Assembly: GCA_029936965.1 (NCBI GenBank)
Contig: JAPYRG010000003.1
Coordinates: 31,417 to 95,416 of the forward strand
Source of the DNA: Fidelibacterota bacterium
Lineage (GTDB): Bacteria > Fidelibacterota > Marinisomatia > Marinisomatales > TCS55
Reading direction: 5' to 3'
DNA: 64,000 nt
Part shown: piece by piece, positions 6,403 through 33,892 of the stretch
How positions within the stretch are numbered: position 1 is the stretch's first letter
How the letters are laid out: each line of letters opens with the position of its first letter
Notes under the pieces: model-generated
The model's input: only the letters and a program-made list of their open reading frames with translations
Told to the model about the DNA's origin: nothing
Database searches by the model: none
Made by a program: the position numbers and the translations under genes

Positions 6403-6921
6403 TTAATTTTTTTCTGTATTAAAATCTCGTAAAATATCATTTCCATGATCTAAAACAGAAACCTGATCATATATTTTTACTATTTTTCCAGATTCGTCAA
6501 TTAAAAATGTTTTTCTTACAGGGAAAAAGACGCCTTTCGTTCCATACAATTGTGAAACTGATTTATCTGAATCCGATAGTAAGTTAAAGGGTAGTTTATA
6601 TTTTTGAATAAATTGTTGATGTGTCTCCGAGTTATCATAACTAATACCGAATACTTTGATATCTTGGTTAGTAAAATCATCATAAGAATCACGAATAGAA
6701 CATGCTTCCTTTGTACACCCAGGAGTATCATCTTTTGGATAAAAATAGATAACCACTTTTTTCCCTTTATATAATGATAAGGTGTGCGGTCTGCTATGTT
6801 GATCAAACAATGTAAAATCTGGAGCAAACTGACCTTCATTAAGATGAACTTCATCACTAAAAAGATTACAGCTGATCATTATTATTGATAGAATGAATAT
6901 CTTTGAAATCAGTCTAGACAT
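6403..6921 (-). CDS. bcp: Thioredoxin-dependent peroxiredoxin (Bcp type), exported/lipoprotein form
   Basis: 172 aa. YFYPKDDTPGCTKEAC contains both the peroxidatic and resolving Cys. The N-terminal signal peptide has a lipobox-like MISC. Confidence 0.85.
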   Translation of the reverse strand: MSRLISKIFILSIIMISCNLFSDEVHLNEGQFAPDFTLFDQHSRPHTLSLYKGKKVVIYFYPKDDTPGCTKEACSIRDSYDDFTNQDIKVFGISYDNSETHQQFIQKYKLPFNLLSDSDKSVSQLYGTKGVFFPVRKTFLIDESGKIVKIYDQVSVLDHGNDILRDFNTEKN

Positions 6922-10025: not shown

Positions 10026-10868
10026 TTATCTCAGATAGATTATCTTACGAGTTTCACTAAAGGATGGTGTAACTAGTTTCACAAAATATACGCCAGTAGG
10101 AAACAGTGAGGCATTCCATTGCATACTGTGATACCCAGGAGAAAAATTATCTGATAGGAGATTATCTACTTTTTCACCTAATAGATTATAGACTGAAATA
10201 TTGGTAAAATTTTTCTCGGATAATTCAAAATTAATAGTGATAGAAGGATTAAAAGGATTAGGATAACAATTTTTAATTCTTGAATTACTAGGAATCAAAA
10301 CATCTGACAATGATAAAGTTGATAATTCAGATAATGAACTATTTAATACAGCTAAAAAATCATTACCAAATGGTGGCATAATATATCCACGAGAAGTATA
10401 AACAACTTTCATCTCATGATTAATTAATACATGATGGGGTACAGATCCTCTTGTGAACATATTACGTATATCGGAACTATTATCATCAACTATCGGGTAT
10501 GATACGCCAAATGATTCTTCCCAATCCTTGCATTCCATTGGCCCTCTCCATCCATTGCCTACTCCAATTGTCATTAAACCTAAATTAGAGAATTGTTCAG
10601 ATATTGTTTGAGTATAAGAGGCCTCAAGCTGACAGCTACGACTAGTCGGGTTAAAGAATATCAACCAAATAACAAAATAATCAGCATTATTTTCTGATCC
10701 ATTATAATCATATAAAAACATTGTTTGATTAATTTCAGTACATATTGTACCCGAAAAATCAGATACAGTATCTCCAACCTTATAGATCTGAGATGATAAT
10801 TCCGAGGCTATCTGTCCTGACAGAGTTGATACAATAAGTATAAATGATATAATTATTCTTTTATTCAT
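10026..10868 (-). CDS. Secreted TlpA/redoxin-like thioredoxin-fold protein with T9SS C-terminal sorting domain
   Basis: Signal peptide from the ATG at 10868 (MNKRIIISFILIV). The redoxin-like core has SRSC where CxxC is expected. The C-terminal about 80 aa, CYPNPFNPSITINFEL...GVYFVKL, is a typical T9SS CTD. Confidence 0.6.
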   Translation of the reverse strand: MNKRIIISFILIVSTLSGQIASELSSQIYKVGDTVSDFSGTICTEINQTMFLYDYNGSENNADYFVIWLIFFNPTSRSCQLEASYTQTISEQFSNLGLMTIGVGNGWRGPMECKDWEESFGVSYPIVDDNSSDIRNMFTRGSVPHHVLINHEMKVVYTSRGYIMPPFGNDFLAVLNSSLSELSTLSLSDVLIPSNSRIKNCYPNPFNPSITINFELSEKNFTNISVYNLLGEKVDNLLSDNFSPGYHSMQWNASLFPTGVYFVKLVTPSFSETRKIIYLR

Positions 10869-10960
10869 TTTATCGAATATTCTATGCTTTTTGCATTTAG
10901 AACATAATGTTACATCGAAAAACATAATGGAAAAAACAATTTTTTATTAATTGACGGAAT

Positions 10961-24058: not shown

Positions 24059-25150
24059 ATGCCCCTTGTTCCTTCATATATAAAACAATTATCAAGCTAC
24101 AAACCTGGCGCTAATATTGATGATATAAAAATAGAAAAATCATTAAAAAATGTAATTAAACTTGCATCAAATGAAAATTCTATGGGCCCATCTCCGCTAG
24201 CAATATCAGCAATAAATAAAGGATTGAAAAAGATTAATCGTTATCCTGATGCAGCTGGAAAAAAACTTCGCAAAAAGCTAGCTAATAAATTTGATGTTAA
24301 AGCTGAAAATGTAATAATTGGTTCGGGTTCAGAAGGGATATTGTCAAATATATTAAGAACCTTTTTATTAACGGATGATCAGATTATTGGATCTGCAAAT
24401 TCTTTTATTGGATTCCGCGTCTTAGCTACAGCTACTGGAAGAAAAATAAATTGGGTTGAAATGAAAAATCACAAAATAGATCTTGAAGGGATAAAAAGTC
24501 ATATTAATGATTATACAAAAATTATATACATAGCAAATCCAGATAACCCTATGGGAACATATATAACCAATAAAGAATTTGATGAATTTTATGAACATGT
24601 CCCAGAACGGGTATTAGTGATACTTGATGAGGCATATTTTGAATATGCAGATCATTTAAATGATTATCCAAACTCAATGACATATAGATATGATAACGTT
24701 ATTACACTTAGAACATTTTCCAAAGCATATGGTCTTGCGGGATTAAGAATTGGTTATGGATTCTCTCATGAAACCTTAATTAATAATTTGTTAAAAGTAA
24801 AAGTCCCTTTCGAACCATCTCGTCTTGCACAAATTGCAGGTTTAGTAGCTTTAGATGATACTGAATTCATGAATAAAACAATTAAACTAAATAAAATAGA
24901 GAAAGATAAAATAGAATTAAAACTAGATAAATTGAATATAAAACGTATCCCCTCCGCAACTAATTTTATAACAACTTATTGGGGTTCCGAAAACAATGCT
25001 AAAGAAATAACAGAAAAAATATTAGATAAAGGAATCATTTTAAGACATTTGGCATCTTTTGGTTGGCCAGAATATGTAAGGATATCTATTGGTTTAAAAG
25101 ATGAAAACGAATTTTTTATTAAAACTCTAGAAGAAATTATTTTATTATGA
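24059..25150 (+). CDS. Class II PLP aminotransferase (HisC-like; by context probably the tyrosine/aromatic aminotransferase)
   Basis: 363 aa. KLASNENSMGPSP, ANPDNPMG and TFSKAYGLAGLRIGY (PLP lysine). The stop overlaps the hppD start (ATGA). Confidence 0.85.
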   Translation: MPLVPSYIKQLSSYKPGANIDDIKIEKSLKNVIKLASNENSMGPSPLAISAINKGLKKINRYPDAAGKKLRKKLANKFDVKAENVIIGSGSEGILSNILRTFLLTDDQIIGSANSFIGFRVLATATGRKINWVEMKNHKIDLEGIKSHINDYTKIIYIANPDNPMGTYITNKEFDEFYEHVPERVLVILDEAYFEYADHLNDYPNSMTYRYDNVITLRTFSKAYGLAGLRIGYGFSHETLINNLLKVKVPFEPSRLAQIAGLVALDDTEFMNKTIKLNKIEKDKIELKLDKLNIKRIPSATNFITTYWGSENNAKEITEKILDKGIILRHLASFGWPEYVRISIGLKDENEFFIKTLEEIILL

Positions 25151-27256: not shown

Positions 27257-28402
27257 ATGCCTTTTTATCAACAACAAGGGGAAGTACCAAATAAAAGACA
27301 CATTCAATTTCGAGATAATAATGAAAGTCTTTACTACGAAGAATTAATAAGCCGAAAAGGCTTCAGCTCATTATATTCTAATGCGTATCACATCAATCCT
27401 CCAACAGCAGTCAATAAAGTTGGTAAATATCAAAAAATAAAAAAAGATCCATTAGATTCGACACACAGGCATTACCATATAAAATCATTTGACTTAAAAT
27501 CCTCAGGTGATGCAATAAATGCAAGACTGTCACTTTTTTATAATGATGATGTAGAATTATCAATTGCTAAGATTGATAAATCAATGAATGCTCTTTATCG
27601 TAATGGGCATAATGATGAAATCATATTTATACAAAGTGGATCTGGGAGATTTTATTCCAACTTTGGCAATATGGATTTGATTAAAGGAGATTACATTGTC
27701 ATTCCTAGAGGCGTGATATGGAAAATGGAAGTTGATGAAAAAATGAACCAATTTATTATTGAAACAAATGGGCCAGTTGAAACACCAACAAATTATCGAA
27801 ATAGTCATGGGCAATTATTAGAACATTCTCCGTACTCAGAAAGAGATATACGTACTCCACAATTGGATAAACCAATCAATGACAGCCCTTGCGCGATCAA
27901 AACAAAACTAAATGGTAGATACCAAGACTATGAATATGTTTATCATCCTTTTGATATTATAGGTTGGGATGGTTGCTATTATCCCTGGATATTAAATATT
28001 AAAGATTTTATGCCAATAACTGGAAAGATACATCAACCGCCACCAGTGCATCAGACTTTTCAAGCTCCAGGATTAGTTGTCTGTTCATTTGTTCCTAGAA
28101 TTTTTGATTATCATCCTGAAGCTATACCAGCACCATATGCCCATAGTAATATTGATTCAGATGAGGTTTTATTTTATTCTGCAGGAGAATTCATGAGTAG
28201 AAATAATATTGAAGAAGGATCAATAACGTTTCATCCTAGCGGACTTCCTCATGGTCCCCACCCAGGAAAGATTGAAGAATCAATAGGAAAAGATAAAACT
28301 AATGAGCTTGCAGTTATGGTTGATACATTTAAACCATTATCTATTTCTTCTTTAGCGAAAGAAGCTGATGATGAAGAATATCCGATGTCTTGGAAAATAT
28401 GA
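27257..28402 (+). CDS. hmgA: Homogentisate 1,2-dioxygenase
   Basis: 381 aa. PYAHSNIDSDEVLFY...ITFHPSGLPHGPHPG matches the HGD metal-site region. Confidence 0.85.
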   Translation: MPFYQQQGEVPNKRHIQFRDNNESLYYEELISRKGFSSLYSNAYHINPPTAVNKVGKYQKIKKDPLDSTHRHYHIKSFDLKSSGDAINARLSLFYNDDVELSIAKIDKSMNALYRNGHNDEIIFIQSGSGRFYSNFGNMDLIKGDYIVIPRGVIWKMEVDEKMNQFIIETNGPVETPTNYRNSHGQLLEHSPYSERDIRTPQLDKPINDSPCAIKTKLNGRYQDYEYVYHPFDIIGWDGCYYPWILNIKDFMPITGKIHQPPPVHQTFQAPGLVVCSFVPRIFDYHPEAIPAPYAHSNIDSDEVLFYSAGEFMSRNNIEEGSITFHPSGLPHGPHPGKIEESIGKDKTNELAVMVDTFKPLSISSLAKEADDEEYPMSWKI

Positions 28403-31792: not shown

Positions 31793-32506
31793 TTATTGAC
31801 CTTGATCTTCAAGGAACAGCGCTTTGTTTACATTAGCAAAAAATTGACGAAAGAATTCTAGCTCATGTATTCCACCAGTACTCAATATTTTACCATCTTG
31901 TTCAATTTCTCCACTAGCACTTACACGAACCTTTGTTTTATCTGCATTAAGATCATTAAGGTTGATTGTCACCTTATATCGTAAAATACGAGGACCAACT
32001 GGACCTGAGTCACTATTGCTTCCTCCTGAGTCTAAATGAATAGTAGGACCATCTCTATCTCGGCGTTTATCACCACCACCACCATCATCATCATCATCAC
32101 CACCAAAAATAAGATTAAAAAGTATAATGCCTGCACCCGCAATAAATACAATAGGTAGCAATTTCCCTAAGCCAGAAAGTTGATTATTATTGGCAGAATT
32201 ATCAGCAAATAATGGAGCCTGACCTTTTTCTGTAGTTCTACTTGCAGTAATTAATCCAATATCTGAATTCAAGACATCAATTGTATAATCCATATCCTGT
32301 AATGCATTGATAGATGCCTTCAATACAGTTTTCATATCCTTAGTAAAACTTCGTGTTTCCATTGCGCGAGCAACAGTCGTTGGCGGCTTAACTGTTGACT
32401 GTTGGGGAGCAGCACATCCGATTAAGGACGTACATAAATAAAAAATTAATGAGATATGTAATATTTTACCCTGCAAAGTAGAAGGGTATAATAATTGATG
32501 GAACAT
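31793..32506 (-). CDS. Lipoprotein with an internal hydrophobic segment and an Asp/Gly low-complexity tract
   Basis: 237 aa. Lipobox LIGC, internal LLPIVFIAGAGIILFNLIFGG followed by DDDDDGGGGDKRRDRD. No family is recognised. Confidence 0.5.
   Translation of the reverse strand: MFHQLLYPSTLQGKILHISLIFYLCTSLIGCAAPQQSTVKPPTTVARAMETRSFTKDMKTVLKASINALQDMDYTIDVLNSDIGLITASRTTEKGQAPLFADNSANNNQLSGLGKLLPIVFIAGAGIILFNLIFGGDDDDDGGGGDKRRDRDGPTIHLDSGGSNSDSGPVGPRILRYKVTINLNDLNADKTKVRVSASGEIEQDGKILSTGGIHELEFFRQFFANVNKALFLEDQGQ
32071..32105 (-). repeat. In-frame trinucleotide tract (ACC)4(ATC)5(ACC)2 encoding GGDDDDDGGGGD
   Basis: Read directly from the sequence: caccaccaccaccatcatcatcatcatcaccacc. Confidence 0.9.
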
Positions 32507-32878
32507 CTAGTATTTCAAACTTTGATATGTAAAATCCAGCACATTCTTGTTTTCATCAAATTTAATAATAACAGTAAGCGATTTTGAAGAAGAGCTACTT
32601 GATGCATTACTTTTACCAAATAATAAAAACCAGAATCCTTCTGATCCTGAATTTTTTTCTGTTGAGATACGGTCATATGTCCATTCTTCTCTTCCCTGGG
32701 TATCTTTTGTAACAATATTAGGAGAACCTAGTACATCCATCACTGCGGACTGACTTTGACCCTTATATATTTTGCTTTGGACCGTTCCTAAGGTAAGATC
32801 ATTACTATTAGTTGGCGTATTAGAAGCACAACTAAATATAATGATAGAAGAAAGACTGATAAGTGTAATTTTTTTCAT
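32507..32878 (-). CDS. Small lipoprotein, BamE/SmpA-OmlA-like
   Basis: 123 aa. Lipobox IFSC. LGTVQSKIYKGQSQSAVMDVLGSPN...EEWTYD resembles the SmpA_OmlA fold pattern. Confidence 0.4.
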   Translation of the reverse strand: MKKITLISLSSIIIFSCASNTPTNSNDLTLGTVQSKIYKGQSQSAVMDVLGSPNIVTKDTQGREEWTYDRISTEKNSGSEGFWFLLFGKSNASSSSSSKSLTVIIKFDENKNVLDFTYQSLKY

Positions 32879-32963: not shown

Positions 32964-33419
32964 TTATACTATATCTTCTAGCACATCTAGAGCATGTGTT
33001 TTCACAGATACTTTTGAATAAGCATAAATTATTATCCCATCCTCATCAATGACATATGTAATTCGAAAAATTCCTTCATATTCTCTACCATACATTTTCT
33101 TTAAACCCCAAGCATCATATGCTTTTAATACATCTGTTGTTTCATCACTTAGCAAAGGAAAAGGAAAGCTCTGTTTTTCACAAAAATTCTTTTGTTTTTT
33201 TGTAGAATCAGCACTCATACCTAAAACGACAACGTCTTGATCTTTAAATTTTTGGAATTCATCACGGAACCCCTGGCCTTCAATTGTTCATCCTGGTGTA
33301 CTTGCTTTAGGATAAAACCAAAGGACTACCTTTTGACCTTTAAAATCTGATAGAGATACTGAATTTTCATCACCATCTAATAGTGTAAACTCTGGTGCTT
33401 TATCTCCCGCGTTTAACAT
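32964..33419 (-). CDS. Bcp-type peroxiredoxin with in-frame UGA at the peroxidatic position (candidate selenocysteine peroxiredoxin)
   Basis: My own translation from the ATG at 33419 (AAGGAGAG sits 5 nt upstream) gives [43 protein letters not shown][TGA][11 protein letters not shown]...GMSADS... It continues into the 84-aa ORF of the track in the same frame. The TGA is at 33288-33290 (codon 44). The sequence is colinear with E. coli Bcp YFYPKAMTPGCTVQACGLRD. Confidence 0.7.
33254..33273 (-). promoter_or_regulatory. Candidate bacterial SECIS hairpin
   Basis: The mRNA reads GGGGUUC-CGUGAU-GAAUUCC: a 7-bp stem (2 G-U pairs) and a 6-nt loop containing GU. The stem starts 15 nt after the UGA. I folded it by hand only. 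Confidence 0.4.
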
Positions 33420-33430
33420 ATATACTCTCC

Positions 33431-33892
33431 TTATACTTTAATTTCTGACCACCGCATTCGATCATCATTACATAAAATCATATCATTTACAATTTTAATT
33501 GCCTGTTTCTGACCTGTCCAAACTAATAAATCTAAGGCTTCATTTATTGTTACCCATTTATACTCTGAGTGTTCATCAGACAATACCACTTCTTCCGTAT
33601 TAACTTCAATACCAAAGACTGGAACTAAATTAATTCTGTCACCCTTTTGCTCATAAAACTTGCTAACATGATCTACTATAAGCATTTTATTTGGTCTTAA
33701 GCCTGTTTCTTCAAGTAACTCACGTTTAGCAGTCTCCCATGATTTTTCACCTTTTTCAATCTTACCAGCTACTCCCTGCCAAATATGTTCATACATCTTT
33801 GTTTTAGCACGTTTCAATAACAAAAATAAAATTCCATTATCGGTAGTTATGTATACATATGCATCAATTACTCTAATAATCATATTTGGCAT
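33431..33892 (-). CDS. NUDIX hydrolase
   Basis: 153 aa with the Nudix box [23 protein letters not shown]. Confidence 0.85.

Follow-up and report, generated by a model that had tools for sequence, protein, structure and literature searches.

The 64-kb stretch of DNA analysed here (the window) contains a locus that, judged by sequence comparison, very probably specifies a complete cytoplasmic peroxiredoxin of the BCP/PrxQ type, 151 residues long, with selenocysteine (Sec, U44) as its peroxidatic residue. A Sec-containing Bcp-type peroxiredoxin had been the central proposal of an initial annotation of this DNA, and that proposal is upheld by the conservation of the TGA codon, purifying selection on the frame, a covarying hairpin, the use of standard stop codons in the window and the presence of SelA and SelB in the phylum.

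The sole interruption of the 151-codon frame is the TGA at codon 44, and standard ORF calling breaks the locus into two pieces, 43 aa and 84 aa long. The initial annotation had described a lone TGA falling exactly on the peroxidatic cysteine codon and a gene truncated by ORF calling; sequence, translation and fragments agree with this description, and the coordinates that it gave for the ATG (33419), the Shine-Dalgarno sequence 5 nt upstream and the TGA (33288..33290) are all accurate. The Shine-Dalgarno-like element AAGGAGAG overlaps the TAA stop (33433..33431) of an upstream NUDIX gene. With Cys placed at codon 44, residues 5-132 match the Pfam domain AhpC-TSA (PF00578) with E=2e-38, and the NCBIfam model NF006960 (Bcp, thioredoxin-dependent thiol peroxidase) returns 165.6 bits against a curated cutoff of 140, in keeping with the original assignment to the Bcp type. 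The two genes lying directly 3' of prx (32507..32878 and 31793..32506, both on the minus strand) encode small lipoprotein-like proteins without an NCBIfam match, one of which, a 237-aa protein, contains the odd run GGDDDDDGGGGDKRRDRD; both may be co-transcribed with radA-tgt-NUDIX-prx.

Table 1. Coordinates of the features discussed in the text (positions in the window unless another locus is named)
Feature	Position	Strand	Basis
Predicted Sec BCP/PrxQ peroxiredoxin CDS	32964..33419	(-)	151 codons including predicted UGA-Sec codon 44; translation, Pfam and NCBIfam matches, colinear orthologs in 16 Marinimicrobia genomes
Start codon ATG	33419..33417	(-)	Sequence
Stop codon TAA	32966..32964	(-)	Sequence
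Shine-Dalgarno-like AAGGAGAG	33432..33425	(-)	5 nt 5' of the ATG; read from the sequence, putative function
In-frame TGA, codon 44, predicted Sec codon	33290..33288	(-)	Peroxidatic position in the PxxxTxxC/U motif; conservation and alignment to Cys48 of X. campestris BCP
SECIS-like hairpin	33273..33254	(-)	Stem GGGGUUC/GAAUUCC (7 bp here), apical loop CGUGAU; single-sequence fold and ortholog comparison
Cys80, TGT codon, candidate resolving cysteine (alpha-3 type)	33180..33182	(-)	Alignment to Cys84 of X. campestris BCP/PrxQ (3GKK, 5IIZ); putative role
Arg119 codon (GIFRITY), active-site arginine	33063..33065	(-)	Counterpart, by alignment, of the Arg in 'GIERSTF' of X. campestris BCP chains
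Second BCP-type peroxiredoxin, 172 aa	6403..6921	(-)	TPGCTKEAC, resolving Cys at CP+5, N-terminal hydrophobic leader
selA-selB loci	L178 4619..7845; L123 3157..6383; also L126, L204		Conserved order rimM-trmD-rplS-MFS-selA-selB-mutS

The closest solved structures are 5ENU (E=1e-34) and the BCP chains 3GKK and 5IIZ of Xanthomonas campestris (E=2e-27). In the alignment to X. campestris BCP, U44, the last residue of the peroxidatic motif P37-K-A-S-T41-P-G-U44, falls on Cys48 and Cys80 falls on Cys84, and the TPG-x-T.EG and NFC.KQ motifs and the active-site arginine (R119) are all matched. We take Cys48 to be the peroxidatic (CP) and Cys84 the resolving (CR) cysteine of X. campestris BCP/PrxQ, the latter on helix alpha-3, and Arg119 presumably corresponds to the conserved active-site arginine of peroxiredoxins. 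The X. campestris enzyme (3GKK, 3GKM, 3GKN and 5IIZ series; atypical 2-Cys) shares with the window protein the TPG-C/U-T.EG signature, NFC.KQ and the lack of a Cys at CP+5, and differs from it in that its peroxidatic residue is Cys whereas that of the window protein is UGA-encoded. E. coli Bcp is equal to the window protein in length and fold, and the latter scores above the Bcp equivalog cutoff; however, the resolving Cys of E. coli Bcp lies at CP+5 (TPGCTVQAC), a position occupied in the window protein by Gln49, so that the latter is not of the alpha-2 type. PrxU of Eubacterium acidaminophilum, which was reportedly shown by experiment to be a Sec-peroxiredoxin (in the 2001 work of Söhling et al.), likewise has Sec at the peroxidatic position (TxxU) but belongs to another subfamily: against the PrxU model NF040737 (profile of 233 positions) the window protein attains 51.9 bits with a cutoff of 270 and is not a member.

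The initial annotation had held that the protein lacks a resolving Cys. This is correct for the position used in E. coli Bcp, CP+5, but not for the protein as a whole, given that Cys80 aligns with Cys84 of Xanthomonas PrxQ. Cys80 is retained in 99 of the 109 homolog clusters, with Gly, Ser or Ala in the others, and it is absent from the Acidobacteriota orthologs; those members which lack it must therefore work as 1-Sec enzymes. The Cys-containing paralog (TPGCTKEAC) that had been noted at 6403..6921 is indeed present; it is of the E. coli type and probably exported. The genome thus combines an E. coli-type Cys enzyme with a cytoplasmic Sec enzyme that follows the Xanthomonas PrxQ pattern. Elsewhere in the window (10026..10925, minus strand) we observed a 299-aa protein with a faint AhpC/TSA match and a C-terminal Por_Secre_tail, a type IX secretion sorting signal (domains as seen in the L055 copy), which may be a redox protein that is secreted or displayed at the cell surface.

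These features suggest how the enzyme would be made and how it would act. The UGA at 33290..33288 would be decoded by Sec-tRNA(Sec) brought by the elongation factor SelB, which in turn would be recruited by a hairpin lying within the coding sequence 14 nt downstream of the UGA. By analogy with the family, the U44 selenolate, activated by Thr41 and Arg119, would reduce H2O2 or an organic hydroperoxide and be converted to the selenenic acid. Cys80 on helix alpha-3 would most likely resolve the latter, forming an intramolecular U44-C80 selenenylsulfide as in Xanthomonas PrxQ, and thioredoxin is the probable reductant of this bond.

A scan of one genome per species yielded 48 loci, in each of which the catalytic codon was read. 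All 16 Neomarinimicrobiota (SAR406) loci (L001-L016), which come from both MAGs and single-cell genomes and encode proteins aligning without gaps at 64-91% identity, have TGA at codon 44. Seven more distant loci also have TGA, namely those from a Terriglobia MAG (L032), Thermoanaerobaculia and other Acidobacteriota (L036-L038, L045), an Armatimonadota MAG (L040) and an unclassified bacterial MAG (L041). TGT or TGC occupies the catalytic codon in remoter homologs from Carboxylicivirga, Bacillota and others (L017-L031 and further loci). The comparison of orthologs suggested in the initial annotation (do they carry Cys, or TGA with a hairpin?) thus gives TGA together with a conserved downstream hairpin in Marinimicrobia, and Cys in the remoter homologs.

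The stem of this hairpin begins 14 nt past the UGA and its loop lies 21 nt past it. In an alignment of 17 Marinimicrobia sequences the 6-bp core is fully paired in every one, and at three core pairs both partners have changed (U-A to C-G, G-C to A-U and A-U to G-C). The clearest of the covarying pairs is U-A in seven sequences and C-G in nine, with a U-G intermediate in one, and here a Phe-to-Leu replacement (UUC to CUC) goes together with a silent GAA-to-GAG substitution. When the partners are shifted by one column, the pairing over all 12 tested pairs, which comprise the core hairpin and an outer helix, falls from 87% to 58%. This outer helix (alignment columns 8-12 with 43-47), proposed by the single-sequence fold, is 81% paired with almost no covariation and was not counted. 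The hairpin itself is short and weak, at about -7 kcal/mol: the single-sequence fold of the 71 nt after the TGA gives no signal against shuffled sequence (z=+0.98), the 36-nt hairpin core is on its own indistinguishable from shuffled sequence (z=-1.2), and the signal arises only from comparison across orthologs. The apical loop contains a G, and a small G-containing apical loop is a feature of bacterial SECIS elements applied in the Sargasso Sea study (PMC1088965). Conservation of the loop is no independent evidence because the same bases are also bound by conserved Arg-Asp codons.

In other phyla different and stronger hairpins are found at the same distance from the UGA, for example AGGUUCCGG-GUU-CCGGGACCU, with a GUU loop, in Thermoanaerobaculia, whereas comparable local structure is absent downstream in Cys homologs. 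The mean local folding z is -1.20 in 24 TGA forms and +0.23 in 22 Cys forms (Mann-Whitney p=6e-7, for sequences that are phylogenetically non-independent and come from at least four separate clades). Within Terriglobia the TGA form L032 folds at -10.9 kcal/mol as against -3.3 kcal/mol for the TGC form L034; the two are related orthologs, and a CCAGUUC...GAACUGG hairpin is seen in the TGA form only. This pair is a clean natural Sec/Cys switch with gain or loss of a SECIS-like element.

The initial annotation had looked to Sec-decoding genes elsewhere in the genome, and the outcome here is divided, with selA-selB recovered from Marinimicrobia MAGs but no sel gene or tRNA-Sec from the window or its surroundings. 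A search for tRNA-Sec in the window with ARAGORN and Rfam returned only tRNA-Glu and tRNA-Asn; neither selA, selB, selD nor tRNA-Sec was found within the window or within about 20 kb of adjoining sequence (10 kb to either side), recovered through exact protein matches that point to the NCBI MAG contigs JAPOGM010000076.1 (GCA_029935975.1), JAPOGI010000153.1 and JAPOGN010000534.1 as the source, and tblastn with E. coli SelA, SelB and SelD gave no match in the window and the 48 loci. Scanning metagenome contigs for the SelA pyridoxal-phosphate motif GDKLLGGPQAG, back-translated into low-GC codons, was more productive. Two Tara Oceans contigs (L123 and L126; 33-36% GC) carry rimM-trmD-rplS-MFS-selA-selB, at which point they end, and their tetranucleotide correlation to the window (0.81-0.82) is within the range of known Marinimicrobia loci. 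Relatives of the L123 SelB are 61-67% identical, and NCBI labels a number of them as the selenocysteine-specific translation elongation factor of Candidatus Marinimicrobia bacterium; the SelB winged-helix domain PF09107 is present in these NCBI-named relatives. In four NCBI-named Marinimicrobia assemblies (GCA_016784465.1, GCA_028818015.1, GCA_028817835.1 and GCA_028817675.1) selA adjoins selB with mutS on the far side, and the complete rimM-trmD-rplS-MFS-selA-selB-mutS locus occurs on metagenome contigs with the P0158 SelB. In L204 the MFS gene is separated from selA by genes for two secreted proteins of the Por_Secre_tail type. SelA/SelB decoding machinery thus exists in the phylum Marinimicrobia.

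The NCBI-named Marinimicrobia selA-selB contigs have 42-45% GC, as against 32% in the window, and therefore represent a different clade from that of the window; Sec-PrxQ loci reach similar values, with L004, L005 and L011 at 40-41%. JAPOGO and JAPOGP, whose accession prefixes adjoin those of the window's MAG contigs, both carry selB (in JAPOGO with selA beside it), but on contigs of 42% GC, and so come from a different organism. No tRNA-Sec was seen at the 16 ortholog loci or in the surroundings of the Marinimicrobia selA-selB loci. The only one observed, with the anticodon TCA, is on a contig from a marine metagenome with a GC content of 38% (L073 3544..3636, plus strand), where a selA fragment follows about 2.7 kb downstream.

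Among the alternatives to Sec, the one that survives best is that the UGA is read through, or serves as a regulated stop, without Sec, by near-cognate insertion of Cys or Trp or by SelB-delivered Cys at low selenium, with the product being mostly Cys or truncated enzyme. Selenium is scarce in the open ocean, which together with the lack of Sec machinery in the window and its flanks would favor such a scheme. A further point in its favor is that three SAR406 single-cell genomes were once classed as 'orphan SelD', with neither SelA/SelB nor selenoprotein genes (Peng et al. 2016, PMC5029168, Table 1). This classification has been read as possibly pointing to an undiscovered selenium pathway. However, because Marinimicrobia MAGs carry SelA, SelB and the Sec-peroxiredoxin, incomplete genomes are the simpler explanation, which suggests that the SAR406 'orphan SelD' label reflects these rather than a new selenium pathway. 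Readthrough without Sec is also difficult to reconcile with a conserved, covarying hairpin at the position of a bacterial SECIS, with syntenic SelA and SelB in the phylum and with the fact that a Cys codon is only one mutation away, yet is found at the catalytic position in just 2 of the 109 clusters retaining the exact TPG motif. We consider it improbable, and decoding as Sec remains the preferred reading.

A second alternative is a pseudogene: a nonsense mutation or an assembly error would have disabled an ordinary Cys-Bcp gene, whose task would fall to the paralog at 6403..6921. The two fragments obtained by ORF calling and the presence of a Cys paralog within the window could be read in this way, as could rare database variants (P0018, P0120, P0008 and P0054; two with Cys, one with Arg and one with Leu), which account for the remaining four of the 120 best-scoring public protein clusters considered below. 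The initial annotation had argued that a random nonsense mutation at this very codon is unlikely, and the comparative data are decidedly on its side. The TGA is shared by all 16 related genomes, the most distant of them at 64% identity, and by four lineages besides; it also recurs in the DNA of one cluster of orthologs from 10 separate samples (L206-L215; Tara, JGI, Logan, ENA and NCBI). No further disabling mutations are present in the prx gene. Across the 17 Marinimicrobia sequences pN/pS is 0.30 for codons 1-43, 0.29 for codons 45-67 (from the TGA to the next ATG) and 0.30 for codons 68-150. As codons 45-67 would be untranslated if the TGA acted as a terminator, and yet are under the same purifying selection as their flanks, the entire frame must be translated, which excludes both a pseudogene and an arrangement of two peptides. 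The pseudogene is effectively refuted, and we rate its residual probability as minute.

Equally slight is the chance of an altered genetic code (4 or 25), in which TGA would stand for Trp or Gly. Of the 120 best-scoring public protein clusters (P0001-P0120), 116 (full-length, 150-151 aa) are indeed called with W at codon 44, but these calls all come from contigs of 0.5-4 kb, on which code 4 lengthens the ORF, and an enzyme with Trp or Gly as its peroxidatic residue would be inactive. In the window itself 51 ORFs reach 150 aa or more, and their stops are TAA in 39, TGA in seven and TAG in five, the seven including the two ordinary TGA stops (25148-25150 and 28400-28402) on which the initial annotation had rightly based its dismissal of codes 4 and 25. 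A scan of the 64-kb window for other coding-strand genes with an in-frame TGA returned only antisense artefacts. The genome of the window uses the standard genetic code, and the calling of short metagenome contigs with code 4 (TGA=Trp), favored because it gives a longer ORF, is evidently a systematic annotation artefact for the prx selenoprotein.

The selenoprotein thus recovered is a re-discovery of one catalogued in 2005. The Sargasso Sea selenoproteome (Zhang, Fomenko & Gladyshev 2005) lists 43 'Peroxiredoxin (Prx)' selenoprotein genes (COG1225, TxxU), and its supplement contains an entry, AACY01010221 ('Peroxiredoxin', 151 aa), with the TGA at nt 130-132 (codon 44). This protein is 67% identical to that of the window over 150 residues without a gap and has the NFC.KQ motif in common with it, a likeness by which we assign the two genes to the same orthologous group. 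Later compilations include 253 Prx sequences (pfam00578, TxxU) in the GOS data (Zhang & Gladyshev 2008), 12 Sec-peroxiredoxin genes from five independent Cys-to-Sec conversions in a 2006 survey, and 91 such genes in 78 organisms in a 2016 survey (PMC5029168). The statement of the initial annotation that Sec-peroxiredoxins are established therefore holds, the Prx family being listed in the 2005, 2006, 2008 and 2016 surveys, whereas the novelty that it attached to a Sec-containing Bcp was overestimated, as the Sargasso list of 2005 already holds the 67%-identical 151-aa ortholog. The marine Prx selenoprotein family shares with the window protein its domain, the TxxU motif and a gene of 151 codons with the TGA at nt 130-132; there is no substantive difference between them, other than that the metagenome papers gave no lineage and the gene is here found on Neomarinimicrobiota/SAR406 contigs. 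A literature search combining Marinimicrobia or SAR406 with selenocysteine found no paper on a Sec-PrxQ gene in that phylum. The new aspects are modest, namely the assignment to SAR406 with a phylum-wide TGA and SECIS-like hairpin, the candidate resolving Cys of the alpha-3 type and the mistranslation to Trp in public calls.

These findings leave knowledge of the mechanism of Sec-peroxiredoxins unchanged. For annotation, they reveal a gene that is systematically mishandled, being either split (43 + 84 aa) or given a code-4 Trp at its catalytic site. Finally, they place a known ocean selenoprotein family in SAR406, an abundant uncultured deep-ocean lineage. We regard it as an even bet that SAR406 bacteria are genuine users of Sec, with the Sec-PrxQ present in every sampled member as their main, perhaps only, selenoprotein and as the source of a sizeable share of the 'Prx' signal of the oceans, and that this enzyme represents a natural Sec/Cys version, with a U44-C80 selenenylsulfide, of the alpha-3-type PrxQ.
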